DNA of 64,000 nucleotides. It comes from an uncultured Candidatus Saccharibacteria bacterium (GTDB taxonomy: Bacteria; Patescibacteriota; Saccharimonadia; Saccharimonadales; AWTP1-31). Below are positions 4,139 to 25,286 of this stretch, piece by piece. Location: contig CAZXLT010000002.1 of assembly GCA_964641545.1 (NCBI GenBank), positions 4,934-68,933 on the forward strand. The letters run 5' to 3'. Position 1 is the stretch's first letter, and the number at the start of each line of letters is the position of its first letter. The notes beneath the pieces are model-generated. The model searched no databases. It had not been told where the DNA came from and saw only the letters and a program-made list of their open reading frames with translations. The position numbers and the translations under genes are program-made.

Positions 4139-4215
4139 AAGGGGGTTGAGCGAAGCCATGAAGACCTCATCATCCAAGATTGACAATTTTATATTTTTGT
4201 GTTAATAATAATACT

Positions 4216-5277
4216 ATGACCGATCCGATCCCTCCAACAGGCGGCCCAGGCCCAGAAGGAGCAGAACCTGCCCCAGGCTTTATGGATATGTCGGGATTTG
4301 CGCCTCCTGCCAGTGCCCCAGAAGAAACCCCGCCAGAACCCCAGCCTACTGCACTACGCAATGACGCTACTGGCAGAATTCTCCTAGAACCTGGTCCACT
4401 TGGCAAAGGCGATGGAATCTACCCTATTTCTGAAGCGGCATTCGTACCGATATCACCAAGCACGATTAAGCTTTCCCGTAAAATACGAGAAGAACTTACT
4501 GATTATAGGCACCAGGCAGCCGATCAATTATTCAACGAGACAAACCGCCCTGTGGATAATGTGAGGGCAGTTTTTGGCGGCGTAAGAAAAGCTATTCTGA
4601 CCAGGAGATTAAGGCTGGCAGAGCGGAGAGCTGCAAGCGCAGAAGACCTTGCCGGTAGCTCTGAATACATTGGTCACGCCGTGATCCACCGTGAGCCATA
4701 CCGTAGAATTTTTCGTAGCGAGGAGGAGTTTGCTGGCACTGCGAGACAGTCTACAAACCCATATTCTCATGAGCTACTCGATGGCAACCCCGCCACAATG
4801 AAACGTGTGAGACCACACACTCGCAGGCAGATACTTCTTGCTGAGAGGTTGCAGAAAATCAACAAAGAAAGAGCCCATGCAATAACCATCCCAAACTTTA
4901 TGCACGGTCTAGAAGATCTAAAGGGTAATACTGTAAGCAAAGGTATTGCACGCCAGGTATCGCAGAGCAGGGTGCCGAGCGAGACAGAGTCCTTAAGCAG
5001 ACGAGAGCGAAGGGATTTACGCCAAGAGCGAGAGCTGCTTCACCATGCAGAACACCACTTACATGACGCTGATGGCAAGTTTGTCAGGGCAGTTGTTCGC
5101 CCACACCGACAAGCAACAGCTCGCAGGATCGAAGCGATCCAGCTCCGGCGCAGAATAGCATCGATTGATGCCGCTCAAGATGCTCGTAGAGAGCGCAGGG
5201 AAGAACGGCGACGCCAAAGAGAAGAAGCCCGCGCCAGACGCCGGGGTAGCGACGAAGACGAAACTCTGACCCCTTAA
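4216..5277 (+). CDS. hypothetical protein, Pro-rich N-terminus and Arg/Glu-rich C-terminus
   Basis: The ORF track starts at TTG 4180, but ATG 4216 (MTDPIPPTGGPGPEG...) is the more plausible start. The C-terminal charged tract is RRERREERRRQREEARARRR. No family recognised. Confidence 0.45.
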   Translation: MTDPIPPTGGPGPEGAEPAPGFMDMSGFAPPASAPEETPPEPQPTALRNDATGRILLEPGPLGKGDGIYPISEAAFVPISPSTIKLSRKIREELTDYRHQAADQLFNETNRPVDNVRAVFGGVRKAILTRRLRLAERRAASAEDLAGSSEYIGHAVIHREPYRRIFRSEEEFAGTARQSTNPYSHELLDGNPATMKRVRPHTRRQILLAERLQKINKERAHAITIPNFMHGLEDLKGNTVSKGIARQVSQSRVPSETESLSRRERRDLRQERELLHHAEHHLHDADGKFVRAVVRPHRQATARRIEAIQLRRRIASIDAAQDARRERREERRRQREEARARRRGSDEDETLTP

Positions 5278-5313
5278 TTTACTTATGTCTTAATCGAAGT
5301 TATTATGTAGTTA

Positions 5314-6420
5314 ATGGCTACATATAAAGTGCTCCAGGACATTGAGGCAGAGGATAAGTTTCTTGGCCCTTTGACCTTAAAACAGTGCATTCTTGCTGGG
5401 ATAACAGCAATAGGTCTCTATTTGAGTGGTTTTTTTCTGTCCAGAGGCATTTGGATTATTGCAGTCGCTTTGTTCCCGTTTGAGTTGGTGCTAGGATTTT
5501 TAGCGTTTCCGTGGGGACGCGACCAACCAACCGAGATCTGGCTACTGGCGAAGCTTCGTTACTTGTTTAAGCCGCGACGACGTATCTGGGACCAATCTGG
5601 CATACAGGAACTGGTAAAAATAACCGTTCCTAAAAAAGTTGAGGAGCATTTAACCGATGGTCTAAGCAATACCGAGGTAAAAAGCCGGCTGAAAGCACTT
5701 GCCGACACCATCGATAGCCGCGGATGGGTTATTAAGAATGTCGATGTGAACATGTTCACTCAACCAGCGTACGGCGCTTTAGCTGCAGGCACCGCTTCCG
5801 ATTCCGACCGATTAGTTGACTTGTCTTCGGTGTCTCACCAAGCAGCTCCTTCTGGTGTAACGGCCAACGATGACATATTCAGCAATCCTTTGTCTGCCAA
5901 GCTTGACGCTCAGATTGCGCAGTCAAAGCAGCAGCACCAAACAAAAGCTGTACACCACATGCAGCACGAAAGCAAAAAAGCTTCGCTGCCGCCTGATGAG
6001 CAGGCAAAGAAAGACCCCAGCAAGGACTTTTGGTTTATGGATCAGCCGCAATTAGCGCAGCAGGAAGGTTATACCATGTTTAAAGGCACCCAAGTTAAGC
6101 CAGGTCAAAGTACCGATCCTAATCTGCTAGGAGAGACCCGCAAAGATGACCTGCTAGATAGCGACTCAAGGGCTTTGCTTGATAAAGTCCACAGAGATAA
6201 AAGCCACAGCCATGATACATTCCGCAACCATCGACATATTGATCCATTTGACCCGTCAAAACAGGCTTCACCCACGGTGACAGCCACTCCTGCTCCTGAT
6301 ATACTAAATGCAGCAATCGACAATAATCGATTTGTCGACGGCTTGGCGCGAGAAGCTCGTAAAAATCACCCCGAGCAACCAGATGCGCCTGATGATGAAG
6401 TGGTTGTTTCGCTTCACTAA
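5314..6420 (+). CDS. PrgI-family / VirB3-like T4SS membrane protein with a long low-complexity C-terminal extension
   Basis: The N-terminus YKVLQDIEAEDKFLGPLTLKQCILAGITAIGLYLSGFF plus a second TM helix, then WGRDQPTEIWLLAKLRYLFKPRRRIW, matches the PrgI-family pattern known from Gram-positive conjugation loci. It lies upstream of VirB4. Confidence 0.6.
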   Translation: MATYKVLQDIEAEDKFLGPLTLKQCILAGITAIGLYLSGFFLSRGIWIIAVALFPFELVLGFLAFPWGRDQPTEIWLLAKLRYLFKPRRRIWDQSGIQELVKITVPKKVEEHLTDGLSNTEVKSRLKALADTIDSRGWVIKNVDVNMFTQPAYGALAAGTASDSDRLVDLSSVSHQAAPSGVTANDDIFSNPLSAKLDAQIAQSKQQHQTKAVHHMQHESKKASLPPDEQAKKDPSKDFWFMDQPQLAQQEGYTMFKGTQVKPGQSTDPNLLGETRKDDLLDSDSRALLDKVHRDKSHSHDTFRNHRHIDPFDPSKQASPTVTATPAPDILNAAIDNNRFVDGLAREARKNHPEQPDAPDDEVVVSLH

Positions 6421-6455
6421 GCACTAACTTTGTAGGGTGGGGTAACTAAGTATCT

Positions 6456-7376
6456 ATGGATCCAACGACAAACCAGTCTCCATACAATGTTCCTGTTGGC
6501 GCTAACCCATACGCAAATCCTGTCGCACCACAAGGCTATGCACCCCCCGGGGCACCTCCTCCAGCAACGTTCCCTGGACAACCCATACAAGAATCTCAAC
6601 AAGTACCCCAAACTCAGCCTGGCGTTAAGCCAATGGCACCAAAGTCTAACCCAAATAGCACGCAGAACGCGCTGCAAATTGCGGAAATCCGCGATGGAAT
6701 TGTAATCATGAATGACGGGTCATTTCGCTCTGTCATCATGCTCAAGTCTATTAACTTTGACTTAATGAGCCCCCAGGAACGTGAAGCTGTGGAGTTTAGT
6801 TACCAAGGATTTTTGAACTCTCTATATTTTCCTATACAAATCACTGTTCGATCTCAGAAAGTTGATCTTGGCCCCTACATAGAAAAGCTCGTAAAAATTC
6901 GAAGCGAACACGACAACATGTTGCTCGCCCTGCTCATGGAAGACTACATTGCATACATGGACCAGCTAAGCGGCCAAACAAACATCATGGATAAGAAGTT
7001 CTATCTTGTCATCCCGTATTTCCCGGTTGCCGATGCGCAAAAAGCGCTTCAAGAAAGTAAGAAACTATTTTCTGGTATTAGCGGAATGTTTGGCAACAAA
7101 CCCCAGGAACAGGTGATCATTAACGAAGGCGACCTGATAAAGGCCAAGGACGAGCTTAGAAACATGGTACAGGCAGTGCTTGCTGGTTTAGCACAATGCC
7201 AAGTCCAAGGATTGCCCCTCGATACACAAGAGCTTATAGAGCTATACTACGATTCGTATAATCCAGACACCGCAACCAGACAGGAGTTAAAAAACTTTAA
7301 CGACCTAAGTGCGCCGGTTATAACAAAAGGACAAGGACAGGCCCCTCAGCCTGGTCTAGATAGGAACTCGCAGTAA
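6456..7376 (+). CDS. hypothetical protein; its core resembles the N-terminal (non-ATPase) domain of VirB4-type proteins
   Basis: 306-aa ORF with a Pro-rich N-terminus. The core IAEIRDGIVIMNDGSFRSVIMLKSINFDLMSPQEREAVEFSYQGFLNSLYFPIQI...KKFYLVIPYF parallels the first ~170 aa of the next gene. Its stop overlaps the VirB4 start (TAATG). Confidence 0.4.
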   Translation: MDPTTNQSPYNVPVGANPYANPVAPQGYAPPGAPPPATFPGQPIQESQQVPQTQPGVKPMAPKSNPNSTQNALQIAEIRDGIVIMNDGSFRSVIMLKSINFDLMSPQEREAVEFSYQGFLNSLYFPIQITVRSQKVDLGPYIEKLVKIRSEHDNMLLALLMEDYIAYMDQLSGQTNIMDKKFYLVIPYFPVADAQKALQESKKLFSGISGMFGNKPQEQVIINEGDLIKAKDELRNMVQAVLAGLAQCQVQGLPLDTQELIELYYDSYNPDTATRQELKNFNDLSAPVITKGQGQAPQPGLDRNSQ

Positions 7377-9289
7377 TGGCATTTCGTAAGAAAAAACAAG
7401 AGCTTGACCCAGTAGCCATTGCCCAGGCTCAACGCTTGCGGGAAGAACAAGAGGTCAGTGCCGCGTTCCAGAAAGGCGTAACAGCACTGCGCGATTTTAT
7501 CGCTCCAAGCTCTTTGGTGTATGAAAATGCTATGTTTCATATCGGGACGCGATTCGCACGAACGTATTACGTGTTTGGATATCCTCGACAGTTATTCACA
7601 GGTTGGCTTAGCAGCATGGTTAACCTGGACGAAGTCATGGACTTATCAATTTTTGTGTACCCAGTGGAAAGCCAAGCTGTACTTGAAAATTTACGCAAGA
7701 AGGTGACGCAGCTCGAGGCCGGCATACAAATTGATGCAGAAAAAGGACGCGTTAGAGACCCTGCGAAGCAGGCTGCTATTATGGACGCCGAGGAAATGCG
7801 CGACAAACTCCAGGTGGGTGAGGAGCGTTTTTTCCGGTTTGGCTTGTACTTTACGGTGTATGGAGACAGTAAAGACGAGCTCGAATTTGTTGCGCATAAG
7901 GTCGAGTCTATCCTTGGTCAACAGCTGGTATATTCAAAACCGGCCACATCACAACAAGAGCAAGGCTTCAACAGTACTATTCCCCAGTTTAGTGATCAGC
8001 TGCAGATTCGTCGCAACATGAATACCGGTGCTATTAGCACAACATTTCCGTTTACTTCAGCGGATCTGAGCCAGGAGAGTGGCATTTTGTACGGAATTAA
8101 TATGCACAACTCTGGGCTGGTTATTTTCGACCGCTTTAGTCTGGAAAACAGTAACTCCGTTATTTTCGCCAAATCAGGTGCAGGTAAAAGCTTTACGGTC
8201 AAACTCGAAGCGCTTAGAAGCTTGATGTTTGGGACAGAGATATTTATTATCGACCCTGAGAACGAGTACCAGCGAATGTGCGAAGCAGTTGGCGGCGCCT
8301 ACGTACGACTTAGCCTTAATTCTGCAACCCGGATTAACCCATTTGACCTCCCTAAAGTTACCGACGCCGAAGAAGCCGACAACGCTTTGCGCAGCAACAT
8401 TATTACACTGCACGGCCTACTCCGTTTGATGATGGGTGGGGCACAGTCACAAATGGTGGCAGGTGGTGGTGTTGCGGCCGTTCCAGCTCTTACACCAGTT
8501 GAAGAGTCTGATCTCGACGCAGCACTAATCGAAACATATGCTAAGGTCGGGATTACAAACGACCCCCTTACCCACAACGCTGTACCGCCAACCATTGCAG
8601 ACCTCTACGATGTGCTCTTGCATATGGGAGGAACCGGACCACAGCTCGCACAAAGGCTGCGCAAGTACACAACCGGAACGTTTGCTGGAATATTTAGCCA
8701 GCAATCGAACACTGACGTAAATAATCCTCTTGTTGTATTCAATATTCGTGACCTAGAAGACGAACTCCGCCCAGTTGCTATGTACATTGTGTTGAACTTT
8801 ATCTGGAACAAGACCAAGAGTGATGTAAAAAAACGTATCCTGATTATTGATGAAGCCTGGCAATTAATGAAGTACGAAGACTCTGCAAACTTCATGTTTA
8901 GCCTTGCAAAAAGAGCCCGTAAGTATAACCTCGGTATTACTACCATTAGCCAGGATGTTGAAGACTTCATGGGCAGTCGAATGGGGAGGGCTATTGTTGC
9001 GAATGCCAGTATGCAGATTTTGCTCAAACAATCCAGTAGCGCTGTCGATGTACTGGCAGACGTGTTTAAGCTGACCAGTGAAGAAAAAAAACGTCTGAGC
9101 CAATTTCCCGTAGGGCAAGGCCTTTTCTTTGCTGGGCAAAGTCACGTGCATATTCAAATTTCCGCTAGCCCGACAGAAGCAGGACTAATAACCACAAATC
9201 CTCAACAAGTACAACAGATGCAGCAAGGTGCATTTGATCAGCCGCAAGGTACTATAGACCTTTCTAACAGGCTTACCCCGGGAGTCTAG
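7376..9289 (+). CDS. virB4: VirB4-family type IV secretion ATPase
   Basis: 637 aa. Walker A is VIFAKSGAGKSF and Walker B is KRILIIDEAWQLM. IIDPENEY and ITTISQDVEDF segments are typical of TrsE/TraE/VirB4 (AAA_10/DUF87-type) ATPases. Confidence 0.85.
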   Translation: MAFRKKKQELDPVAIAQAQRLREEQEVSAAFQKGVTALRDFIAPSSLVYENAMFHIGTRFARTYYVFGYPRQLFTGWLSSMVNLDEVMDLSIFVYPVESQAVLENLRKKVTQLEAGIQIDAEKGRVRDPAKQAAIMDAEEMRDKLQVGEERFFRFGLYFTVYGDSKDELEFVAHKVESILGQQLVYSKPATSQQEQGFNSTIPQFSDQLQIRRNMNTGAISTTFPFTSADLSQESGILYGINMHNSGLVIFDRFSLENSNSVIFAKSGAGKSFTVKLEALRSLMFGTEIFIIDPENEYQRMCEAVGGAYVRLSLNSATRINPFDLPKVTDAEEADNALRSNIITLHGLLRLMMGGAQSQMVAGGGVAAVPALTPVEESDLDAALIETYAKVGITNDPLTHNAVPPTIADLYDVLLHMGGTGPQLAQRLRKYTTGTFAGIFSQQSNTDVNNPLVVFNIRDLEDELRPVAMYIVLNFIWNKTKSDVKKRILIIDEAWQLMKYEDSANFMFSLAKRARKYNLGITTISQDVEDFMGSRMGRAIVANASMQILLKQSSSAVDVLADVFKLTSEEKKRLSQFPVGQGLFFAGQSHVHIQISASPTEAGLITTNPQQVQQMQQGAFDQPQGTIDLSNRLTPGV

Positions 9290-9292
9290 CAA

Positions 9293-12200
9293 GTGGGACC
9301 ATCTGGGACATTAAACCAACCAACAAGATACGACAACGATGATGACGAACAGTCAGACTCATATGTAGGAGGCACTTCAGGTGGCGATGGAGGCTTTGCG
9401 CCAAGTTCGGTTAGGCGATCCTCCAATAGACATATCAGAGCAAGGGCTCACAACCGGACGAATCAAAGAGGCCGCCTAAAAAGCAAGGCCCCGATTGAGA
9501 CAACAAGCAATATTAGGGGTGATGGCTACCAGCAAGACGACACCGATGAAGGCGTAAATGGGCTTGAGGGAGGCGTAGCACAAGACTACGCCGGCAATGA
9601 GGGTGAGCAAGAGTACGATACGCAGCAAGATAATGGGAGCTTAAGTAAGCCAGAGCTAGAGGAAGCCGAGGCAGGGGCTGGGCAAGACGATTCACGGGAG
9701 TCAGAAGGGGGTGGTGAGGCTGCTTCAATTGGCAAGCTTTCAGGTAGGACAAGCGACACAGAGGACGAGATACCATATCGAGACGAAGGGGGTGGTAGGT
9801 TTTCAAAACTACGAAAGCGTCTTGGCAACGAAGGAGCTTTGGGTTTTGTAAAAAAGCACAAAACAGGTTCAAGCGCCGGAGGGGTAGTTGCTTTGTTGTT
9901 GCTGCTATTTTTTATGAACTCTCTGAGCTCATTTAAGGTCATTCATTTTGGCGAAATTTTGGCGGTAACAGGCTATTCGCGCGTTAACGGCATTTTTCAG
10001 GAACGCACAACACAAAACATTTTCGATGCCTCAATCGTGGAAGGCGAGGGTAGCGTAAACTTACGAGGCAAAACTCTTGTTGACAGGATTAAAATGCGTA
10101 ACCTTGATGCACAGATCACAGAACTTGGTCGCTCTGAAGCACTTCGTTTTGAATATAACGAAGGCAAGATGGTTGGAGTACGGGTCAAAGGACAATCCGT
10201 AAGTCTCGACAGCATTACGCAAGAGCTTGGTTACGGAGAAAAGTTTACGGACGTTAGCAGCGGGTTTTCAAAACTTAGACCAAAGAATATCCGCGCGGTC
10301 ATGGACGTACGAGCAGAGTTTACAAGACGAGTACAGACCACTGTTGGGGATGCTCTTGCCCTTGAGCCGCGCGCAGTTAGGGGGCGCGTTATGGCAACAA
10401 TTTCAGACAACATTGGCTTTAAGTTCAGTCGTTGGCGACAAGCAGGACGTGAGTTTGCAGGCAAAACACCAAAGGAAGCGGCCATAAAAGATGCAGTGGA
10501 TCAGGTCGAGAAGAATTCCAAAGTAACCGATATAGACAATGTATCGGGAGAAACAAGGGAATTGGTCAAAGAAGCGAAAGCCAAGGCACGATTTCAAAAA
10601 CATCTAGAAAAAACCGGAGGAGTTTTTGATGATGTCGCTTTTTCTGAAAGTTATGCAGCAGACCTTGGGAAAGCTGCGAAGGTGCAAGAGGTTGCCACTA
10701 ATGTTGGCACCTTCGTGCTGGTTGCTAGTATCGCCTGTATGGTTAACGACGCAGCTCGCAATGTTGGTGAGGTGCAAAAGAATAACGAAATCAGTGCCGA
10801 AAAAGAAGCTGCAGATGCATTGGCGGCAAAAGACCAGAATAAGGCAGGCAAAGTTCGCCAGGAAGCCCTGGCTGGGCTAGGTCGACGCTATAACGGCGCA
10901 GAAAACTCAGCATCGTACCAACGCCTTACAGGCCAACCCGTTACCGGGGAGACAGTGGTGCCCAACTTGCGCCCCAACATGAGTCCGACCTTGATTGACT
11001 TAGCGCAAACATTCACCAGTCCTTCGCGTCTTGGGCTGGGACCCCTTGGTCTGGGGCTAGATGCGATTGGCGGCGATGATGCGCTCGACAAAATAGATGC
11101 AACCTTCTGCGGAGCTTTGCTAAGCCCGACAGGTGCGGTCGTAGCCGTAACCGGAGAGGTTATTGTGCAAGCAGTCATCGGCTTCTTTACGGCTGGAGGC
11201 GGTACTTTTGCGAGCGAAGGAGCTGCAAAATTAACCGCTCAAACATTTTTGAAAGAACTTGGTAAGGCGGTTTTCAAGACGGGAGAGGGTCTAGTAAGCA
11301 AGAAGTCACTTGGAACCTTAGCTGGTCTTGGCCTTTTCTCGCTTGGCCTCAATTACGTTGTAGGCATGCTTTCAGGGACTGCATTTTCGCCAGCACAATC
11401 TGGTCCTCGCTTGTTTGAAAATCAGCAGATAGGCACCAACCTATTGCAGTCTAGGCGGGAGCGAGCACAAAATTTTGGACGACCCGTTAAAACTGCGGAC
11501 GCTATTAAGGCTGATCAGCATTATAGTCAGCTTTCAACGCAATATCGTCAAAACCACAGTTTTTTTGCTCGTTACTTTTCGCCCAGTAATCCATTTTCAG
11601 TAGCTAGCCTTGCTGCAGCGCGCATACCTTCTTCGGGCGGACAAATTATAGAAGAAGCGCCCGGTAGACTGAGCAATGTGGCATCGGTATTGAACCCCTT
11701 TTCTAGCAGCTCAATAGTACGTTCACTCTTTGCGGGTTCGGGGGTTGTTTACGCGGCAGATAATGTCGATAAGTACAGCGACATTCAGCAGTGGTCATAT
11801 TCGAGCGATGAACTGGAAAAAATGCGCAACGACCCTAGCTACGGGATCGTTGAAAACTCAACCTATATTACCGATGAGTTCTTAGAGCAAAAGGACAGCG
11901 AGATCGGTAAGTGCTACGACCCCGCCATAACACAAGCTGAAGCTGAAGAGTTGCCAGAATGCAGCGCTGAAAACCTTGCACAAGACGACAACTTCCGTTA
12001 TCGACTATTCCACCTAGACCAGCAGACTGTTGAGGACTCAGAGCAAAGTCTTAAAGCAACAGCCGAAACAACCCCATCGGGTCCTGTCGCAGCTGCAAAT
12101 AACAAGCTCTTTGTGGTTGGTGACTCGCTAACCGTTGGCATGAAGAGCTCTGGCCAGCTGAGTGAAAAACTACAGTTTATCGGCTGGTCTCCTACGAAGA

Positions 12201-13183
12201 TCGAAGCAACTAGTGGCGATAAAGTTGAAGATGCGCTGCCAAAGCTTGATGCAGACGTAGACGCAATCAAGCAAGCAGGCACAGCAGTTGTCATGCTCGG
12301 GACCAACAATGTTGCCCCAGATTTCAAAGTAAGTGTAAAAAGCATGGTAGATAAATTACGGTCTATCAATCCATCTATAAAAATATACTGGATGAATGCG
12401 CTGACTGATAGATTCGACTACGAAATGGTTAACTCGTCAATCCAAGCACAAGCAAGCCCGCTAAATTACACTGTTATTGACTGGGCAGCAGAGTACCGCG
12501 CGAACAAAGCCAAATACCCAATGGCAGACGGAGTTCATCATACTGCAGCAGGTTACCTGGCAAAGTCAGACTTCTTACTTAGCAAGCTTGGTCCCGCACC
12601 GACCGCCGTAAACCTACCGGGCATCGATGGCCAGTCTCAGTGTGCTGCAGGCAGTGAAAGTGTTGGACAGCACCAAGCGTATTTTAACGGAACAGCGAAG
12701 CAAATAACCTTATGTGCAATAAATGACCTCCCGATTCAACAACTTGACGGAGATAGCGCAGAAAGCATCCCCGGCTCCTCCTATTATATACAGGGCGCGA
12801 ACAAGCGTGCGTTGGTAAGCTCCACCATTTCAGACAAAATAGTTGCCATGGTCCAAAAGGCTAAAGCTGACGGCACACCCCTTACAGCAATAAGCAGTTT
12901 CCGAACCAACCAACACCAAACTGCAGCTTGTGGTAGGGTGTCTCAAAATAGGTGCTCAAATGGGGGCTATGCTTTACCGGGATTTTCTGCTCATCAATCT
13001 GGCGAAGCTATCGACTTTCTTGACTCTAACCGAAATAGCACAGCAAACTGCAGAAACAGTATGCAAGGATCTCGTTGTGTAGGCACAGATGCAGTATGGA
13101 AATGGCTTAATGCCAATGCAGTGAATTTTGGATTAAAGCAGCTACCGAGCGAATCTTGGCACTGGTCAACATCAGGAACATAA
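9293..13183 (+). CDS. large membrane-anchored cell-wall hydrolase: SGNH/GDSL esterase domain plus C-terminal VanY/M15 D-Ala-D-Ala carboxypeptidase-like domain
   Basis: 1296 aa with a GTG start. It has an acidic/Gly-rich N-terminal region and TM segments (VVALLLLLFFM; LGTLAGLGLFSLGLNYVVGML). SGNH blocks are LFVVGDSLTVGM, VVMLGTNN and DGVHHT. LAS/VanY motifs are SSFRTNQHQ, GFSAHQSGEAIDF and ESWHW. Confidence 0.7.
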   Translation: MGPSGTLNQPTRYDNDDDEQSDSYVGGTSGGDGGFAPSSVRRSSNRHIRARAHNRTNQRGRLKSKAPIETTSNIRGDGYQQDDTDEGVNGLEGGVAQDYAGNEGEQEYDTQQDNGSLSKPELEEAEAGAGQDDSRESEGGGEAASIGKLSGRTSDTEDEIPYRDEGGGRFSKLRKRLGNEGALGFVKKHKTGSSAGGVVALLLLLFFMNSLSSFKVIHFGEILAVTGYSRVNGIFQERTTQNIFDASIVEGEGSVNLRGKTLVDRIKMRNLDAQITELGRSEALRFEYNEGKMVGVRVKGQSVSLDSITQELGYGEKFTDVSSGFSKLRPKNIRAVMDVRAEFTRRVQTTVGDALALEPRAVRGRVMATISDNIGFKFSRWRQAGREFAGKTPKEAAIKDAVDQVEKNSKVTDIDNVSGETRELVKEAKAKARFQKHLEKTGGVFDDVAFSESYAADLGKAAKVQEVATNVGTFVLVASIACMVNDAARNVGEVQKNNEISAEKEAADALAAKDQNKAGKVRQEALAGLGRRYNGAENSASYQRLTGQPVTGETVVPNLRPNMSPTLIDLAQTFTSPSRLGLGPLGLGLDAIGGDDALDKIDATFCGALLSPTGAVVAVTGEVIVQAVIGFFTAGGGTFASEGAAKLTAQTFLKELGKAVFKTGEGLVSKKSLGTLAGLGLFSLGLNYVVGMLSGTAFSPAQSGPRLFENQQIGTNLLQSRRERAQNFGRPVKTADAIKADQHYSQLSTQYRQNHSFFARYFSPSNPFSVASLAAARIPSSGGQIIEEAPGRLSNVASVLNPFSSSSIVRSLFAGSGVVYAADNVDKYSDIQQWSYSSDELEKMRNDPSYGIVENSTYITDEFLEQKDSEIGKCYDPAITQAEAEELPECSAENLAQDDNFRYRLFHLDQQTVEDSEQSLKATAETTPSGPVAAANNKLFVVGDSLTVGMKSSGQLSEKLQFIGWSPTKIEATSGDKVEDALPKLDADVDAIKQAGTAVVMLGTNNVAPDFKVSVKSMVDKLRSINPSIKIYWMNALTDRFDYEMVNSSIQAQASPLNYTVIDWAAEYRANKAKYPMADGVHHTAAGYLAKSDFLLSKLGPAPTAVNLPGIDGQSQCAAGSESVGQHQAYFNGTAKQITLCAINDLPIQQLDGDSAESIPGSSYYIQGANKRALVSSTISDKIVAMVQKAKADGTPLTAISSFRTNQHQTAACGRVSQNRCSNGGYALPGFSAHQSGEAIDFLDSNRNSTANCRNSMQGSRCVGTDAVWKWLNANAVNFGLKQLPSESWHWSTSGT

Positions 13184-13188
13184 CAATA

Positions 13189-15330
13189 ATGAAAAAAATA
13201 CTTACATTATTCAGAAACAAAAGACCGGTGCGTATTAAACGGGCACCAGACATGCTTCGCGCTGGTTTAACGCTTTTTGTGATCAGTGCTGTTTTAGTTG
13301 GCACTAATGCACCGCTTGCCTCTGCTTTTACTTCGTGCGAGATTGAGGAAATATTGAACGGGACCATTTATTATAATGGGTGCAAGGCAGACTGCCCTGA
13401 GCCTGACATAACAAGCACATCCACAAGCCCTTCTATCGGGGCAGCCGATGATTACCCGCTAAAACTCCCTGCCATTTCGGACGCAAACAAACTGGCAACA
13501 ACAATAGACGAATACATACAGAAGTATAAACCCGACGCACCATTGAACGGCATGGGCAAGTACTTTGTGCAAGGCGGTATGCGCTCTGGTATAAACCCGT
13601 TGCTAGTTGTGGCACATGCGCAGGTAGAGTCGCAGTTCGGAACCGCCAGCACCAGCTTTAACGCGCAAGGAGCGCATAACGCCTTTGGTCGCACGGCAAC
13701 CGATCGCCAACCAGGAGTAGAAACAAATCGCCGATGGTACAAATGGGAAAGCTGGCAAGCAAGTTTATACTCTACTGCCTTTCCGGCGAGCGGGAAAACC
13801 GATCAACCTGACGATCATTTTCAATATATTAGCCGCGTCTATGGTAACAACCTCGCTAATGGAGTTGTTAAATATTTGAGCGGAGACCAGACGAAAGGCC
13901 TCCCTGGCTACGCGCCAGAATCAGACGGTAACAACGTAACCGAGTACGCAAAAAATATTGTAAGTATTGGCACAGAAATTGCAGGAGCCTCTGGTGGGGC
14001 GATTGATCTAGGGCATTTTGGCTCCGTCTCTACGGATTCCTCTACCGCACCAGCCGACCCTAACGCTGCCGCAACTGATGCTGGCCGAACTATCGTTGCT
14101 CTCGACCCTGGACATGGATCGGTTGTAACACAATATACCGATCCTGTTACCGGACTCGGCGACCGCGAAACCGACAACAGCCCAGAGCGAGAAGACGTAC
14201 AGGAGGTAGCGAATCAAGCAAAGGCGACCCTTGAACAAGCAGGCTATAAGGTTGTGATGCTTAAAACTAGCGCAACAGATGCCGTCAGCAAACGAGAGAG
14301 AGTAGACGCAGCTGTAGCAGCAAATGCAACCATAGCGGTGAGTATCCATACTGACTCCGGTTCTGGAACATTCGAGGGGTGGGCAGAAGTTTGGCCACAA
14401 TTCGTCGGAGGTTTTAGGGAGGCGTCAAACGACCCTAGTAAAAAGGTTGTTTTTGACAACCAAGAAGTTGCTGATAAAAGCAATGCTTATGCTGATATTT
14501 TTGCAAAAGAGCGAGACCTAGCCGAACGCAAGGGTTCGGGTGTGACGAAAAAGGTGGTGAGCCAAGACGTGCCATTCGAGAAGCCGCGAGGCCTCCCGTC
14601 ATGGGGGAATCTATCGCTTGTTCAGCTCTGGGCGGAGGATATTCCTTGGGTGTATAACGAAGTAGGAGCTCCCGCAGGAGGTCTTACGACAGACCAGAAG
14701 CATGCCTATGCACAGGGCATTGCTAATGGCGTCATGAAATCACTCCCTGCCTCTTCGACCGCCCCCTCAACAGATACAAGCGGCTGTTCTGGTGGGAGCT
14801 TGAATTATGCCCCCTTGGGCAATGGCGACGCAGCCGCATTAGCATTGTCTTATGCATGGCCAAATTATCGTGGCTCTAAAACAGCACAAGCCCGCGCCAT
14901 GAAGCCCGAGTATGAAGCAGCGGTAAACCGCGCTAAGAACTCCGGCTACTACATAGGAGGCATTAGCTATCCTGGGGTTGACTGTGGTGGTTTTGTAAGC
15001 CGCGTAATGCTAGATAGTGGGTATGAACCGGGCTACAACAATACAGGCTTAGTGAAAGCTGGGGCCGGCTTTACAGGGGTACAATTAGCATGGGTACGGC
15101 AACACTGGCAAAGCATCGGCAAGAGCGTGTCTACTTCGCAGCTTCAGCCAGGCGATGTCGCTTTTAAGGTCACTTCGAGTGGGGGAAATGGTGGGCACAC
15201 TTTTATGTATGTTGGGCAACAGACTGGGTTTGAATCTGTTATTGCATCTGCCTCACTTGACGGTAGGGCGCCCATGGCCGGAAAAGAGAACCCTACAGCA
15301 TCAAATATAGAATGGTTTAGAAAAAAGTAG
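13189..15330 (+). CDS. secreted three-domain peptidoglycan hydrolase (glucosaminidase/lysozyme-like + Amidase_3 + NlpC/P60-like)
   Basis: ATG 13189 (MKKILTLF...) is preferred over the track start 13156. There is a signal anchor. The glucosaminidase-like motif is LVVAHAQVESQFGTAS...AHNAFG. The Amidase_3 pattern is IVALDPGHGS...IAVSIHTDS. The NlpC/P60-like Cys/His motifs are GVDCGGFVSRVM and GHTFMYVG. Confidence 0.75.
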   Translation: MKKILTLFRNKRPVRIKRAPDMLRAGLTLFVISAVLVGTNAPLASAFTSCEIEEILNGTIYYNGCKADCPEPDITSTSTSPSIGAADDYPLKLPAISDANKLATTIDEYIQKYKPDAPLNGMGKYFVQGGMRSGINPLLVVAHAQVESQFGTASTSFNAQGAHNAFGRTATDRQPGVETNRRWYKWESWQASLYSTAFPASGKTDQPDDHFQYISRVYGNNLANGVVKYLSGDQTKGLPGYAPESDGNNVTEYAKNIVSIGTEIAGASGGAIDLGHFGSVSTDSSTAPADPNAAATDAGRTIVALDPGHGSVVTQYTDPVTGLGDRETDNSPEREDVQEVANQAKATLEQAGYKVVMLKTSATDAVSKRERVDAAVAANATIAVSIHTDSGSGTFEGWAEVWPQFVGGFREASNDPSKKVVFDNQEVADKSNAYADIFAKERDLAERKGSGVTKKVVSQDVPFEKPRGLPSWGNLSLVQLWAEDIPWVYNEVGAPAGGLTTDQKHAYAQGIANGVMKSLPASSTAPSTDTSGCSGGSLNYAPLGNGDAAALALSYAWPNYRGSKTAQARAMKPEYEAAVNRAKNSGYYIGGISYPGVDCGGFVSRVMLDSGYEPGYNNTGLVKAGAGFTGVQLAWVRQHWQSIGKSVSTSQLQPGDVAFKVTSSGGNGGHTFMYVGQQTGFESVIASASLDGRAPMAGKENPTASNIEWFRKK

Positions 15331-15334
15331 CAGT

Positions 15335-15976
15335 ATGAGGTATCTTGATACTATGGCACCAGAAGCAAGACGTTCAATACTGGTAGTTGCAGGTTTTATT
15401 GTTGTTCTGGTGTTTTTGTTCGGCTACTCACAGTTTTTTGCAAAAAAAGGAACCCCAGTTCGCTTAGACGTTGTCCCGAGCGATGCAGTTGTCACCCTAG
15501 ACGGGAAACGGCTTTCTACGGGTACTGTACGACTTTCACCCGGTGAGCATACGTTTACAGCTAAGAAGAGTGGTTTTGAAAAAGCCGAAGACAAGGTATC
15601 TATTAAAGAAGGTTCTGAAAATAAATCCGTTCAACTTCTCCTAACTCCTGTCTCTCCAAATGCGATAGCATGGGCCGAAAAAAACCAAAAACTCTATCAG
15701 AGAGCTGAACAAAAAGCCGTGGAAGATGTAGTCAAAGAAGGAGAAGAATTCCAAAAAAAATTCCCTTTGAGCAAGCTTTTACCATTTAATAATCTATTAT
15801 TTAGCATCGATTACAAAACTGATGAGAGTTCAACTAAATTTACTGTTCAGATTGAGGCAAAAACACCTACCGACCGTGCTTATGCCTTGGGGCAAATTAG
15901 AAACTGGGGCTACGACCCGGCAGACTACCTTATTGAATTTGTCGACTTCGCCAACCCATTAAGGACGGGGGACTAG
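15335..15976 (+). CDS. PEGA domain-containing membrane-anchored protein
   Basis: N-terminal TM helix (ILVVAGFIVVLVFLFGY). The PEGA-like segment is VRLDVVPSDAVVTLDGKRLSTGTVRLSPGEHTFTAKKSGF. Confidence 0.55.
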   Translation: MRYLDTMAPEARRSILVVAGFIVVLVFLFGYSQFFAKKGTPVRLDVVPSDAVVTLDGKRLSTGTVRLSPGEHTFTAKKSGFEKAEDKVSIKEGSENKSVQLLLTPVSPNAIAWAEKNQKLYQRAEQKAVEDVVKEGEEFQKKFPLSKLLPFNNLLFSIDYKTDESSTKFTVQIEAKTPTDRAYALGQIRNWGYDPADYLIEFVDFANPLRTGD

Positions 15977-16635
15977 TGAATAGCACGCGTCGCTCTGTTA
16001 TTGTCATTTTAGCTATAGCCTCAGTAGTTATATTGGGTGGTTTACTGTATTTAAATTCATTTCAAAAGCTCACAATTATATATGGCGACCAAATAAATGG
16101 GGTAAAAACAACCATTTATAGACACGAGCATGACGATGACGCACTCCCAACAGATGGAGATATCGTTAAAGAAATCGCAAATACAACAACTTTCAAGTTA
16201 AAGCGGGGGAGCTATCTAATTGTGAGCTCTAATACTGATGACTATGCTGAAAAAGACCAGGTTGTTGTGTTGAGCGATGAACCGATATCGATAGATGTTA
16301 ACCCTGAGTACTCCGAAAAGAAAAAGAAGCAAGTGTTGAATGCAGAATCCAAGAGTCTGCGACAACAATTGGCTCAACAATACCCGGACACAGAACGTTT
16401 TTACACCGTCGGTAATGAAGTGTTAGTTAACAGGGGTACGTGGTACGGTGCAACCCTTTTGCCGAACAGCTTAGTCCCGGAAGAAAACAAAGATGTTCTT
16501 CGCATTGTCGCACAAAAAAAGAACAGTAAATGGGAGTATGTAATGTCTTTCCCGGAGATATTGGTTAGCAAGGCGCAGTACCCAACTATACCTGCCGGGG
16601 TTATAAAAGAAGTAAATAGATTGCCCACTAACTAG
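15976..16635 (+). CDS. hypothetical membrane-anchored protein
   Basis: 219-aa ORF with a GTG start that overlaps the previous stop (TAGTG). N-terminal TM helix VIVILAIASVVILGGLLYL. No family recognised. Confidence 0.45.
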   Translation: MNSTRRSVIVILAIASVVILGGLLYLNSFQKLTIIYGDQINGVKTTIYRHEHDDDALPTDGDIVKEIANTTTFKLKRGSYLIVSSNTDDYAEKDQVVVLSDEPISIDVNPEYSEKKKKQVLNAESKSLRQQLAQQYPDTERFYTVGNEVLVNRGTWYGATLLPNSLVPEENKDVLRIVAQKKNSKWEYVMSFPEILVSKAQYPTIPAGVIKEVNRLPTN

Positions 16636-16643
16636 CTGATTAA

Positions 16644-17705
16644 TTATTTCTCTGTTGGGATAATGGTGCACTCGCCTATGAAGTGGTGTACAACAACATC
16701 AGCATCAGTCGTAGTAATGAACGTTTGGTAACCTTTTAGGTGGCGAGTTAACGCTTTACGGCGAGCCCCGTCCAGCTCACTAAACACGTCATCTAACAGC
16801 AGCACTGGCTTCTTGTGGTCCCGCTCCTCAACGGCGCCAATTTCCAGCAATTTCAACACCAACAGTATCGTACGTGACTCTCCCCTCGAAGCAGTTGTTT
16901 TTGAATCGTGTGCATTGAGTAGGGCAACGAAGTCCTCTCTGTGTGGACCGTGCCCCGTGAAGCCACGCTCTATGTCTTTATATTTAGTCCTTTCGAGTAC
17001 GTGTAATAATTTTGATGTGTAGTTTTCTAATGTGACGTCTGGCACATATTCTAACTGTAGGGCATTATCTGTTGACGATATCTTCTTATAAAGTTCCGGT
17101 GCCCGTTTATTAAACACACTCACTAAATCTGCGCGAGCATTTGCGATCACTCCACCCAGTTCGCTTATCCTCACATTCCACGCGAACAACTCTGCGTCAG
17201 GTGGGTTTGGTGTATTTTTAAGTAGTTTATTGCGCTGGGCTAGTGTCCGTATGTAATCACGTCTAACTTTTCCATAACCGGGTTTTATCCGCTCGAGAAC
17301 ATCATCCAAATATTCTCGTCTTTTGTCTGGGCCTGCCTGGAATAACTGAAGATGTTGCGGCTCAAACACAACCACCGACTTCTTTTTGGGCGGAGAAAGA
17401 CGCAGGTATTTTTGTGTATTAATAACAAATTGTTTTGTTATTTTTTCTTCTGCTTCCTTTTTTACAACCACACTTCTGCGCTCGTCATCAACGAGTCCTT
17501 CGAGCCTTGCCCAATCGGCTGCGTACGTTATGAGCGCGTTGTCTTTTGCGCGAAAAGAAGAACCCGTACACAGAACCATGAGCGACTCTAGTAGGTTGGT
17601 TTTTCCGCTCGCATTTGGTCCCACAACTATTGTTACCCCTGGGGAAAACTCGAAAGATGCATCACGGTAGGTTCTAAAATTTTTAAGCCGCACACTAACT
17701 ATCAT
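16644..17705 (-). CDS. recF: DNA replication and repair protein RecF
   Basis: N-terminus LKNFRTYRDASFEFSPGVTIVVGPNASGKTNLLESL (Walker A) and C-terminal LLLDDVFSELD signature. It sits in the dnaA-dnaN-recF arrangement. Confidence 0.9.
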   Translation of the reverse strand: MIVSVRLKNFRTYRDASFEFSPGVTIVVGPNASGKTNLLESLMVLCTGSSFRAKDNALITYAADWARLEGLVDDERRSVVVKKEAEEKITKQFVINTQKYLRLSPPKKKSVVVFEPQHLQLFQAGPDKRREYLDDVLERIKPGYGKVRRDYIRTLAQRNKLLKNTPNPPDAELFAWNVRISELGGVIANARADLVSVFNKRAPELYKKISSTDNALQLEYVPDVTLENYTSKLLHVLERTKYKDIERGFTGHGPHREDFVALLNAHDSKTTASRGESRTILLVLKLLEIGAVEERDHKKPVLLLDDVFSELDGARRKALTRHLKGYQTFITTTDADVVVHHFIGECTIIPTEK

Positions 17706-17736: not shown

Positions 17737-18828
17737 TCAGCTTTTAAGAGGCATTACGATGTGAATGTAGTCGGTCGACCCAACTTCACGCAAAACACAT
17801 GGTTCAAGCTTGCCATTAAAACAAAGTTCAACAATATCAGCAGACATAACACTTAGTGCCTCTAGAAGATACTTTGAATTTAATGTTATGTCTCCGTCTC
17901 CTTTTATCTGAGCTTCTGCGCTGGCTGTATTCTCACCAAGTTGTGATGCGATTGCATTGATACTTACTTGTTTTCCTTTTGCGTCTAGGTGTATTGTTAC
18001 ACTTCCTGCACTCTCTCTCGCAAACAGACTCGAAACCTTAGTGATGTTAACGAGTTCGCTCTTTTTTAAGGTTGCTATGTTTGAAAAATTCTTAGGAATA
18101 AGTTTTTTATAGTCTGGGTAGTTTCCTTCGATAAGCCGCGCGACAAGTTCTGCATCACCAACCCTAAATAAAACCTGCTGTTCATCGCTTGTAATTTCGA
18201 CGTCGCCATCTTGCTCACCGATTAAACGAAGTAGGTCTCCTAATGCATTAGCGGGGATAAGTAAACGTATTTCTTGGGTGTTTGATCCAAGTTCTTTTTC
18301 GGCTAGTCGATAGCTGTCTGTAGCAACCATGTATAGCTTTTTATCGCTCGTGTGTAAAAACACACCAGTTAGAACTGGTCGCGCTTCGTCGGTGCTTGCG
18401 GACAACAAGGTCTGTTGCAACCCTTTTCTAAAAACTTGCGCTGGTATCTTCCATGTTTCGCCATTTTCGATAGACGGCATAACAGGAAACTCGTCAGCGG
18501 AAACGCCGTTAATAACAGAGTTGTATTTGTCTGTTGTTATATGGAGCTTTTGATCATCTAGATTTAACTCGATAACACCCGACGGCAGGCTTGAGATAAA
18601 ATCTTGCATCAGTCGTGCCGGAACAGTAATACTGCCTTTTGTGGATATCTTCGAGCCAATGAAGTGGGTTATTGCGATATCTAGGTTAGTAGCTGAGATC
18701 GATAGTCGATTATCAACGGTCTTGAGCATTATGTTGGCTAGAATTGGCAGGGTATTTCTTGTATTTGCAACTCGTGAAACACTGCTGACTGCTTTGTTTA
18801 AATTCTCTTGAGTTACTTGTAGTTTCAT
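17737..18828 (-). CDS. dnaN: DNA polymerase III beta sliding clamp
   Basis: 363 aa. MKLQVTQENLNKAVSSVSRVANTRNTLPILANIMLK and three-domain length match DnaN. It lies immediately downstream of dnaA. Confidence 0.92.
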   Translation of the reverse strand: MKLQVTQENLNKAVSSVSRVANTRNTLPILANIMLKTVDNRLSISATNLDIAITHFIGSKISTKGSITVPARLMQDFISSLPSGVIELNLDDQKLHITTDKYNSVINGVSADEFPVMPSIENGETWKIPAQVFRKGLQQTLLSASTDEARPVLTGVFLHTSDKKLYMVATDSYRLAEKELGSNTQEIRLLIPANALGDLLRLIGEQDGDVEITSDEQQVLFRVGDAELVARLIEGNYPDYKKLIPKNFSNIATLKKSELVNITKVSSLFARESAGSVTIHLDAKGKQVSINAIASQLGENTASAEAQIKGDGDITLNSKYLLEALSVMSADIVELCFNGKLEPCVLREVGSTDYIHIVMPLKS

Positions 18829-20863: not shown

Positions 20864-21256
20864 ATGCTTGGTCGGATGTACCGGTTCCATGGTCATAACG
20901 GGCTTTCTTTTGTGTATAAACGGGGGCTAACTGTCAGGGGTGACCAGTGCAGTATTCGCACCATAGAGAACTCAAAACGACCTGAGTATCGTGTCGCAGT
21001 CGTGGTCAGCAAGAAGGTTGCCAAGGCTGCAGTTACGCGAAATCGGATACGTCGCCGAATCTTTGAGTACGTCCGTAGACGATCGGACGGTATCGCAAAG
21101 CCCCTCGACATCGTTATAACTGTTTTTGCTTCCGAGATGGCCGAGATGCCTGCTGCCGAGTTAGAAAAAACAATCGAGAAATTGCTGGTCAAATCCAAAG
21201 TCATTACTAAGCCAACAACAAAGCCGCGTGCTACTATAGAACAAAAGGAGAGCTAA
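20864..21256 (+). CDS. rnpA: ribonuclease P protein component
   Basis: 130 aa and basic. AVVVSKKVAKAAVTRNRIRRRIFEYVR matches the RnpA signature. It lies in rpmH-rnpA-yidC synteny. Confidence 0.85.
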   Translation: MLGRMYRFHGHNGLSFVYKRGLTVRGDQCSIRTIENSKRPEYRVAVVVSKKVAKAAVTRNRIRRRIFEYVRRRSDGIAKPLDIVITVFASEMAEMPAAELEKTIEKLLVKSKVITKPTTKPRATIEQKES

Positions 21257-22179: not shown

Positions 22180-22638
22180 ATGGAAAAATCAATAGTATAC
22201 GCAAAGAAATATCTTGAGGATCTACTTTCTTTCTTTGGGCTGAATACGGAGGTATATGCGACCAATAGTGATGACGAAGTAATTGAGCTTCATGTTCCTA
22301 GCACACACTTAAACGGATTTTTGATCGGGCATAACGGCGAAACAATGCGAGCCATGCAGTACATGGTAAGCACAGCTTTAAAAAACAGTGACCACGAAAT
22401 TTCTCGAGTAAACGTCGATATAGCGGATTATAAAAAGGCTCGGGCTGATCGTTTGAGCGACAAGGCAAAAGAATGGCTAGAGGAAGTAAAGAAAACCAAA
22501 CAAGACAAAGCATTAGAACCGATGAATGCGGCTGATCGTCGAACTATTCACAAATTAGCAGGTGATTTTGGGCTAGAAACAGAGTCGGTTGGTGAAGGGC
22601 GTGATCGACACATTGTTGTAAAAGCAGTTACTGACTAG
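22180..22638 (+). CDS. jag: KH/R3H-domain RNA-binding protein Jag/KhpB-like (no Jag_N domain)
   Basis: 152 aa. KH-like segment FLIGHNGETMRAMQY and R3H-like segment LEPMNAADRRTIHKLAGDFGLETESVGEGRDRHIVV. It follows yidC. Confidence 0.8.
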   Translation: MEKSIVYAKKYLEDLLSFFGLNTEVYATNSDDEVIELHVPSTHLNGFLIGHNGETMRAMQYMVSTALKNSDHEISRVNVDIADYKKARADRLSDKAKEWLEEVKKTKQDKALEPMNAADRRTIHKLAGDFGLETESVGEGRDRHIVVKAVTD

Positions 22639-23747: not shown

Positions 23748-23802
23748 ACAACAACCACGAGCGGTTTCAGGCGAACACAGTGGTTTGTTATAATGCTAAC
23801 AG

Positions 23803-25283: not shown

Positions 25284-25286
25284 CTA

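Follow-up and report, generated by a model that had tools for sequence, protein, structure and literature searches.

Predicted wall hydrolases of variable module content in the origin-proximal type IV secretion operon of a Saccharibacterium

We analysed two adjacent open reading frames, ORF A and ORF B (Table 1), in a 64 000-nucleotide stretch of contig CAZXLT010000002.1 (assembly GCA_964641545.1), referred to below as the window. Homologues of both place the organism in Candidatus Saccharibacteria, whose members are ultrasmall epibionts. The two genes follow virB4 in a chromosomal type IV secretion system (T4SS) operon and carry five distinct hydrolase modules between them. We read the pair as machine-associated wall hydrolases of this T4SS, which would open the epibiont's own wall and probably the host wall too; we give this reading a probability of roughly 0.55, with much higher confidence that the genes are T4SS-linked wall hydrolases than that they act on a host wall. 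The gene pair has already been annotated and discussed, and is a known part of the Saccharibacterial T4SS that is essential in Candidatus Southlakia epibionticum ML1. The published papers that we searched give no module composition beyond the annotation of SEML1_0006 and SEML1_0007, the S. epibionticum genes described below. To our knowledge, a constant core whose payload is swapped among relatives, with an esterase in either gene, is apparently undescribed in those papers.

RESULTS

Five hydrolase modules in two adjacent genes

A preliminary description of this DNA, made from the sequence with no database searches, had placed five different wall-cleaving modules in two large reading frames of a T4SS-like operon and had proposed a membrane anchor for the first. 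Both frames were found where it had put them, within a tightly packed T4SS operon (593-16635) in which every gene is on the + strand and the intergenic gaps are 0-42 nucleotides (nt). The operon encodes, in order, proteins of 1181 and 365 amino acids (aa), a PrgI/VirB3-like protein, a TrsD/TraC-like protein, VirB4, ORF A, ORF B, a PEGA-domain protein and a 219-aa protein. The five modules are distinct and all score above the curated Pfam gathering thresholds, with E-values of 1e-7 to 1e-12 that are not attributable to chance. All the motifs that had been quoted were recovered, and homologues retain the catalytic residues with the one exception of the third NlpC/P60 residue. Fold searches independently recovered four of the five modules (SGNH, M15, GH73 and Amidase_3), and the anchoring of ORF A is supported by hydrophobic segments.

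The SGNH/GDSL module of ORF A has intact motifs: S945 in block I (GDS), G1003 and N1005 in block III (GTNN), and D1079 and H1082 in block V (DGVH). Its best Foldseek match was the C-terminal domain of Staphylococcus aureus OatA (6wn9/6vjp; E 1.3e-4, template modelling (TM) score 0.79), and esterases followed, the O-acetylesterase Ape1 being a weaker match among them. Both share the Ser, Asn and Asp-x-x-His motifs with the module. A sequence search of the PDB with the module alone returned chance-level matches only, and the likeness to OatA and Ape1 is thus structural only. The OatA domain, a peptidoglycan O-acetyltransferase, is supplied by an AT3 membrane domain, which is absent from ORF A. 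Compared over aa 935-1095 (12095-12577), the GDSL modules of ORF A and homologue P0067 share 61% identity, against 37-46% for the cores of the same two proteins, a gap compatible with either recent transfer of the module or much stronger constraint on it. The only non-Saccharibacterial match of our locus scan, L010 in the Alphaproteobacteria metagenome-assembled genome (MAG) VAZV01000265.1, covers query residues 713-912 only (ORF A aa ~902-1101, the SGNH module) at 27% identity; it was rejected as a member of the core family and is an unrelated SGNH protein.

The VanY/M15B module at the C-terminus of ORF A likewise has intact motifs: R1204 in the SxxR...Q substrate motif, H1234-x6-D1241 and E1287-x2-H1290. 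Its best PDB match by sequence was LdcB/YodJ (4ox3, E 2.8e-4), and by Foldseek it matched VanYB and LdcB. M15 enzymes of the VanY/LdcB type are typically carboxypeptidases, which trim stem peptides rather than open the wall. With an LdcB/YodJ-like M15 module and an SGNH module closest to the OatA transferase domain, the earlier proposal that the five modules cover nearly every bond class in peptidoglycan over-reads the family names.

ORF B begins at the ATG at 13189 (MKKIL...), 6 nt past the stop of ORF A; the frame opens mechanically at a TTG (13156), which we do not take as the biological start. The hydrophobic segment near its N-terminus lies at aa 24-47 by hydropathy, with a helix at 19-39 in the AlphaFold model, and may serve as a Sec signal peptide or else as a signal anchor. 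That model (predicted local distance difference test score, pLDDT, of 87.5) comprises three compact domains, with low-confidence linkers between them (284-296 and 526-544). In the GH73 module, the catalytic E147 (in AHAQVESQFG), the general acid of the family's (A/S)xxESxxG helix, is kept in 54 of 65 homologues, and Foldseek matched LytB (7pj3) and AtlE (4pi9). Zinc ligands H309, E333 (or E327) and H387 of the Amidase_3 module, along with its catalytic residue E491 (in PWVYNE), are each retained by 59 or more of the 65; the Pfam match of this module ends early and is split because of a ~90-aa insertion, and Foldseek matched AmiP (TM 0.80), CwlV, AmiA/B and Rv3717, with TM scores up to 0.80.

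The third module, of the NlpC/P60 type, retains C599 (61 of 65 homologues) and H670 (63 of 65), which align with the Cys and His of Spr/MepS, its PDB matches by sequence (E ~1e-3). Of the 105 positions of the Pfam profile, only 4-80 are matched, and the match stops short of the third catalytic residue, where the aligned column is variable or hydrophobic. The 50 fold matches listed for the ORF B model include no NlpC/P60 structure, and the assignment therefore rests on Pfam and the Spr/MepS sequence alignment. The Pfam SLT and CHAP families had no match in the window's proteins at E ≤ 0.1.

Table 1. Features of the window around ORF A and ORF B
Feature	Position	Strand	Basis or remark
First two operon genes, 1181 aa and 365 aa	593-5277	+	No family match here
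PrgI/VirB3-like protein	5314-6420	+	Pfam PrgI, 37 bits
TrsD/TraC-like protein	6456-7376	+	Weak NCBIfam TrsD and VirB4 N-terminal matches
VirB4-type ATPase, directly 5' of ORF A	7376-9289	+	Pfam P-loop_TraG 96.4 bits, AAA_10, DUF87
ORF A, 1296 aa	9293-13183	+	Predicted polytopic membrane protein; orphan core and two C-terminal hydrolase modules
ORF A aa 1-195, N-terminal region	9293-9877	+	Low complexity, G/S/D/E/R-rich
ORF A aa 196-905, core	9878-12007	+	Conserved, ~700 aa
ORF A aa 941-1088, SGNH/GDSL hydrolase module	12113-12556	+	Pfam Lipase_GDSL_2 43.6 bits (cut-off 32.9)
ORF A aa 1175-1296, VanY/M15B (LAS) zinc peptidase module	12815-13180	+	Pfam VanY aa 1175-1282, 45.4 bits (cut-off 25)
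ORF B, 713 aa	13189-15330	+	Predicted exported three-module peptidoglycan hydrolase
ORF B aa 1-47, basic N-terminus and hydrophobic helix	13189-13329	+	Hydropathy; ends ...APLASA/F
ORF B aa 75-283, GH73 glucosaminidase (lysozyme-like) module	13411-14037	+	Pfam Glucosaminidase aa 125-205, 34.9 bits (cut-off 30.2)
ORF B aa 297-525, Amidase_3 (N-acetylmuramoyl-L-alanine amidase) module	14077-14763	+	Pfam aa 303-441, 45.8 bits (cut-off 27)
ORF B aa 545-713, NlpC/P60-type cysteine peptidase module	14821-15327	+	Pfam NLPC_P60 aa 587-683, 30.3 bits (cut-off 23)
PEGA-domain protein (213 aa) and 219-aa protein	15335-16635	+	End of operon; kept in every related locus
recF	16644-17705	-	Directly beyond T4SS operon
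dnaN	17737-18828	-	Origin neighbour
dnaA	19094-20464	-	Origin neighbour
rnpA	20864-21256		After dnaA
yidC	21256-22173		After rnpA
KH/R3H jag-like gene	22180-22638		After yidC
GT4 glycosyltransferase	22635-23747	-	Surface-glycan cluster
GtrA-like membrane protein	23803-24255		Surface-glycan cluster
GDP-mannose 4,6-dehydratase	24252-25283		Surface-glycan cluster
NAD-dependent epimerase/dehydratase	25287-26204	-	Surface-glycan cluster

An orphan membrane core in ORF A

ORF A starts at a GTG (9293), 4 nt past the virB4 stop, and its N-terminus (PTRYDNDDDE) fits the homologue consensus PxxxYDDE. The N-terminal region is poorly conserved (15-28% identity to homologues), and a basic stretch (RFSKLRKRL...KKHK) directly precedes the first membrane helix. 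Hydropathy marks hydrophobic segments at aa ~199-217, 466-484, 603-641 (one or two helices) and 675-697, with a K-rich loop at 642-674, and predicts approximately five membrane helices. Eight of the 10 cysteines fall after the last helix, among them the invariant C874 and C890 of the small Cys-containing domain that forms the C-terminal end of the core. Five helices together with the positive-inside pattern would leave the N-terminus in the cytoplasm and the C-terminal enzymes outside.

The whole core is 37-46% identical to homologues P0067-P0077. Word-indexed homologue searches with ORF A returned at least 9-10 proteins; family size was taken from an exhaustive representative search, which gave 498 representatives of the core at E ≤ 1e-30. 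Neither Pfam (at E ≤ 1) nor a PDB profile search gave a credible match to the core, which on these comparisons appears to belong to no described family. Its identification as an 'extended VirB6' was rejected at the sensitivity used, as hhalign gave probabilities <1% both against the TrbL_3 protein of related locus L001 and against the window's 593-4138. The AlphaFold model of aa 190-1296, built with only 12 sequences, had a pLDDT of 56.5; the C-terminal modules reached 70-88 and the core was unusable, and fold matches to the core were left uninterpreted owing to this low confidence. From gene position, the core is probably in or beside the VirB4/VirB3/VirB6 translocon.

The counterpart in S. 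epibionticum

The T4SS of S. epibionticum comprises SEML1_0006-0019 and is essential (Wang et al. 2023, PMC10633639). There, SEML1_0008 (VirB4) is followed by 0007, 0006, 0005 (PEGA), 0004 and then recF-dnaN-dnaA, and SEML1_0004 to 0008 all scored as growth-defective or essential by transposon sequencing (Tn-seq) in co-culture (PMC10633639). SEML1_0007 (1113 aa) has a Hedgehog/DD-peptidase domain at 951-1105; SEML1_0006 (643 aa) has PF01832 and PF18013, and ECOD assigns it a lysozyme-like domain twice and a cysteine proteinase (PMC10633639).

We take ORF A and ORF B to correspond to SEML1_0007 and SEML1_0006, respectively. Both pairs occupy the same slot, after virB4, before the PEGA gene and beside recF-dnaN-dnaA, and are of similar sizes (1113/643 aa against 1296/713 aa). 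The first gene ends in a DD-peptidase/M15 domain in both organisms, and the second combines lysozyme-like and cysteine peptidase domains, PF01832 included. The window's pair differs in the extra SGNH module of ORF A and in having Amidase_3 where SEML1_0006 has its second lysozyme-like domain, PF18013. One homologue on a 6-kb JGI contig, P0082, is 1113 aa long, the same length as SEML1_0007.

A constant core with exchanged modules among relatives

We compared the pair across related loci, where the homologues of ORF A and ORF B are called gene A and gene B (Table 2). Loci L001-L003, reached via gene B homologues, have virB4, a large core protein, a multi-hydrolase, the PEGA gene and a ~220-aa protein gene in the same order beside recF-dnaN-dnaA. 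Loci L004-L009, taken from genome representatives, were compared by the order of gene sizes on the + strand, with Pfam run on genes A and B only, and show the same size order as the window. Six core-family loci were found in Saccharibacteria/Saccharimonadales MAGs. The synteny of virB4, gene A and gene B is invariant across loci that are only 37-45% identical.

Table 2. Module composition of the gene pair; counts include a C-terminal cysteine peptidase (Cys-peptidase) tail where homology alone indicates it
Locus	Gene A	Gene B	Modules per pair
Window	Core + GDSL + M15	GH73 + Amidase_3 + NlpC/P60	5
S. epibionticum	Core + M15	GH73 + PF18013 + Cys peptidase	4
L001	Core only	PF18013 + Amidase_3	3
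L002	Core + GDSL	GDSL + PF18013 + Amidase_3	5
L003	Core only	GH3 + PF18013 + Amidase_3	4
L006	Core + M15	GDSL + PF18013 + C39-like peptidase	4
L008	Ends in M15 motif (Pfam not run)	PF18013 + alpha/beta esterase	4
L009	Core + M15	GDSL + PF18013 + M23	4

Within this fixed order the modules are shuffled. For L001-L003 the tail is indicated, with no Pfam call, by 58-61% query coverage with Amidase_3 present and by conservation of C599/H670, and for L008, again with no Pfam call, by the C-terminal sequence. Pairs with ~3-5 modules are normal in the lineage, so that the window does not show the unusual lytic capacity attributed to it in the preliminary description; it is at the upper end of the normal range and is not an outlier. 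Its module set differs from that of the characterised S. epibionticum pair and is within the normal variation of the family.

Among 89 full-length gene A members, the core is followed by M15 in 39, by GDSL in six, by GDSL and M15 in three (the window included) and by other tails in nine; the remaining 32 (36%) are core alone. Every payload sits C-terminal to the core. The persistence of the core without payload in 32 of the 89 argues that it fulfils a structural function independent of the enzymes, which are passengers. The other tails include M23 and Exo_endo_phos, a nuclease/phosphatase-family domain, with either GDPD or alginate lyase: in the gene A family, P0132 carries Peptidase_M23 (922-1026), P0090 carries Exo_endo_phos (826-1054) and Alginate_lyase2 (1357-1580), and P0091 carries Exo_endo_phos (905-1132) and GDPD (1179-1309). 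The payloads of P0090 and P0091 are not of a peptidoglycan type and suggest, by family, targets such as phosphodiester-linked polymers and exopolysaccharide.

Pfam assigned Amidase_3 to 60 of the 65 gene B homologues, the 'phage tail lysozyme' PF18013 to 31, making it their commonest glycosidase module, NlpC/P60 to 21 and GH73 to 19; GH3, SLT, Transglycosylas (PF06737), M23, CHAP, C39-like and GDSL modules also occur. The GH3 N-acetylhexosaminidase is found in P0038, P0045, P0054 and P0058. In gene B of L008 (L008:3221-5887) an alpha/beta-hydrolase esterase (Pfam BD-FAE, with weaker Chlorophyllase/PETase-like matches, aa 469-590) takes the place that an SGNH esterase has elsewhere. Esterase modules turn up repeatedly, in the one gene or the other, and from these domain assignments esterase activity of some fold seems to have been recruited repeatedly at the locus. 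At L004 (L004:5563-8653, MAG JAPLYT010000003.1), gene A is split into an 858-aa core, P0070, and a 180-aa protein, P0221, annotated 'M15 family metallopeptidase'. A Logan assembly in the same 90% cluster has an unsplit version of 1039 aa, P0222; the L004 gene has either undergone fission recently or been broken by a frameshift or an error of assembly.

In the proteins that carry them, the modules are conserved as much as the core or more. ORF B and P0002, for example, are 79% identical in Amidase_3 and 75% in P60, against 70% overall. Faster evolution of the modules than of the core was rejected on this ground, and the diversity therefore comes from module exchange and not from rapid divergence or decay. 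The sequence conservation of the modules indicates probable selection for activity.

The cognate immunity genes that the preliminary description had proposed to look for did not appear. At L001-L003 no variable immunity gene lies by the hydrolases, and at these loci and in the window only the conserved PEGA and ~220-aa genes follow downstream; at none of them was a payload accompanied by a co-varying immunity gene, as polymorphic toxins would require.

The operon adjoins the replication origin

The T4SS operon adjoins recF-dnaN-dnaA and is therefore chromosomal and origin-proximal, not part of a mobile element. These three neighbours are common to L001-L003 and S. epibionticum, and the window's wider origin neighbourhood, from recF to the jag-like gene, recurs in L001 and L003. 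A T4SS operon at the replication origin has been reported for many Patescibacteria (PMC12102498). A mobile-element or prophage origin was rejected: dnaA-dnaN-recF adjoin the locus in every relative, and its surroundings showed no integrase, relaxase or phage genes. Past the origin region there is a surface-glycan gene cluster (22635-26204; Table 1).

The PrgI and TraC-like calls of the window recur for the corresponding genes in L001-L003. A TrbL_3/VirB6-like gene holds the first operon position in related loci, and S. epibionticum has a divergent pilin array upstream of its T4SS operon. In the window, a divergent 173-aa frame (55-576, - strand) has no family match here, like the 1181-aa and 365-aa genes. 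All three are probably strongly diverged counterparts of the relatives' TrbL_3/VirB6-like and pilin genes.

Comparison with T4SS-linked and other wall hydrolases

By analogy, the most likely functional counterparts of the pair are PrgK (pCF10) and TraG (pIP501), both cited in PMC12102498, and CwlT (ICEBs1), the VirB1-like hydrolases of monoderm conjugation systems. CwlT has a two-domain architecture, and PrgK is a membrane-anchored protein with several domains. Like ORF A and ORF B, these proteins are encoded beside virB4 in a PrgI-VirB4-type operon and are membrane-anchored or exported, and like ORF B they join a glycan-cutting domain to a Cys peptidase (CHAP or NlpC/P60). In make-up, ORF B is close to CwlT (glycosidase and NlpC/P60) but for an inserted amidase. 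The differences are that the conjugation proteins use SLT or muramidase domains where ORF B uses GH73; that they have two to three modules in one protein, against five in two; and that they have no SGNH, M15 or Amidase_3 module, nor anything like the ~700-aa polytopic core. They also serve DNA conjugation from mobile elements, whereas the Saccharibacterial system is chromosomal and essential. VirB1 of the Agrobacterium-type (diderm) T4SSs has the same proposed role, local opening of peptidoglycan for machine assembly, but is a single small soluble lytic transglycosylase, unlike the window's pair.

The published survey of virB1 genes bears on the baseline of one modest VirB1/PrgK-type enzyme per T4SS locus used in the preliminary description, which is too low. 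Monoderm virB1 genes are larger than diderm ones and have SLT and CHAP domains, and PrgK is cited as a multidomain peptidoglycan hydrolase (PMC12102498). In Patescibacteria, according to Quiñonero-Coronel et al. (2025, PMC12102498), the VirB1-profile matches are mostly away from virB4, and the function of VirB1 may be carried out by the peptidase and lysozyme homologues that directly follow virB4. VirB1-like components are listed for the Saccharibacterial T4SS locus in a 2025 review, and another recent review describes the role of this T4SS as 'completely unknown' (PMC11665869).

Outside secretion systems, modular phage endolysins and tail lysins and the Gram-positive autolysins (Atl-type amidase and GH73) share with the gene pair the same families, flexible linkers and recombination among relatives. 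Unlike these, the window's pair has no phage context, no detected cell-wall-binding repeats and a fixed place in a secretion operon at the origin. The gene A family also recalls polymorphic toxins and effectors in joining a constant N-terminal part to a variable C-terminal enzyme. Unlike them, it has no adjacent variable immunity gene, carries envelope hydrolases and not cytotoxic domains, and lacks a payload in one third of its members.

DISCUSSION

Own wall, host wall or another role

If the pair is machine-associated, ORF A would sit in the epibiont membrane by about five helices, with its N-terminus in the cytoplasm and its C-terminal 600 aa outside. The orphan core would be part of the VirB4/VirB3/VirB6 translocon or docked on it, holding the SGNH esterase-type module and the M15 peptidase beside the machine, while Sec-exported ORF B would supply the glucosaminidase, an N-acetylmuramic acid (MurNAc)-L-Ala amidase and the NlpC/P60 endopeptidase. 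Together the modules could dismantle peptidoglycan locally, so that the T4SS channel and a VirB2-like pilus might cross the epibiont's own wall. As the enzymes would face a tightly apposed host cell, they would probably thin or breach its wall as well where the two cells touch. Such host-wall action is plausible for an epibiont and fits the module shuffling. The published Tn-seq essentiality was obtained in co-culture and cannot separate action on the epibiont's own wall from action on that of the host.

Several points weigh against this reading. The correspondence with SEML1_0007/SEML1_0006 is drawn from synteny, size and domain annotation. Searches with the core detected no similarity to known T4SS subunits, and the AlphaFold model of the core cannot be relied on. 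Going by its structural likeness, the SGNH module might be a transferase, or its substrate might be something other than peptidoglycan; and a VanY/LdcB-type module, judged by its relatives, would usually not open a wall alone.

The pair may instead act solely on the epibiont's peptidoglycan, for assembly of the T4SS and pilus in the manner of VirB1, PrgK and CwlT, with the variety of modules reflecting redundancy or own-wall chemistry. We consider this possible, if on balance unlikely. The same function has been proposed for hydrolases linked to monoderm T4SSs (PMC12102498), Saccharibacteria synthesise peptidoglycan themselves (TM7x transcriptome paper), and this reading agrees with the anchoring of ORF A in the epibiont membrane, with an ORF B that may stay anchored by its N-terminal helix, and with the 36% of gene A family members that have no enzyme at all. 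What it accommodates less easily is that modules are swapped among related genomes while core and synteny stay fixed, and that the GDPD, alginate lyase, nuclease/phosphatase-family and GH3 N-acetylhexosaminidase payloads are not obviously wall-piercing; diverse external targets fit these more readily. Those same payloads bear on a feeding role, in which the enzymes would harvest host envelope material (N-acetylglucosamine (GlcNAc), MurNAc, stem-peptide amino acids and phosphodiester-linked polymers) for a cell unable to synthesise such building blocks itself, and the T4SS operon would provide co-expression and placement at the interface. TM7x has no pathway to UDP-GlcNAc, which is presumed to be host-supplied (TM7x transcriptome paper); the LdcB-like M15 and GH3 enzymes are of a trimming or recycling type; P0090 and P0091 have their non-peptidoglycan payloads; and the window's module set could on paper cut peptidoglycan to small fragments. 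Nevertheless, the data examined show no uptake system linked to this locus, secreted digestive enzymes need no strict fusion or coupling to T4SS core genes, and one third of loci have no gene A payload, and we regard feeding as improbable.

We find it very hard to credit that the proteins are housekeeping autolysins for growth and cell separation that merely lie in the operon, or bacteriolytic toxins translocated by the T4SS in the manner of Xanthomonas X-Tfe. Division autolysins usually belong to the Amidase_3, NlpC/P60 and GH73 families, the essentiality of the syntenic S. epibionticum genes would also fit a division role, and T4SS-delivered wall-degrading toxins are known in Xanthomonas (cited in PMC7427843). 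Both proposals have to contend with loci that, at only 37-45% identity, keep translational coupling to virB4 and an unchanging gene order around it. For a toxin, moreover, ORF A as an integral membrane protein and ORF B with its Sec-type signal are both unlike a cytoplasmic T4SS substrate, and the next gene is always the conserved PEGA gene and not a variable immunity gene.

The reading of the pair as machine-associated hydrolases of own and probably host wall can be extended, tentatively and with considerable doubt. The core might be a T4SS subunit acting as a platform for interchangeable, host-directed envelope-degrading payloads, with gene B as a second interchangeable cassette: a polymorphic 'can-opener and feeding' device matched to host envelope chemistry. 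Its repertoire would comprise an esterase, a glycosidase, an amidase, endo- and carboxypeptidases and, in some lineages, a phosphodiesterase or polysaccharide lyase.

Implications

The constant core with swapped payload is more interesting than the single locus, and makes the question of host-wall action experimentally approachable. The two hydrolase genes are the only components of the Saccharibacterial T4SS with readily assayable biochemistry, and the window's pair, with five apparently intact modules, is a convenient source of enzymes to compare on epibiont and host sacculi. The pattern suggests that module content may track the type of host envelope. If the pair does belong to a polymorphic device of the kind outlined above, the module repertoire would predict the host range of uncultured Saccharibacteria and would explain why their T4SS is essential.

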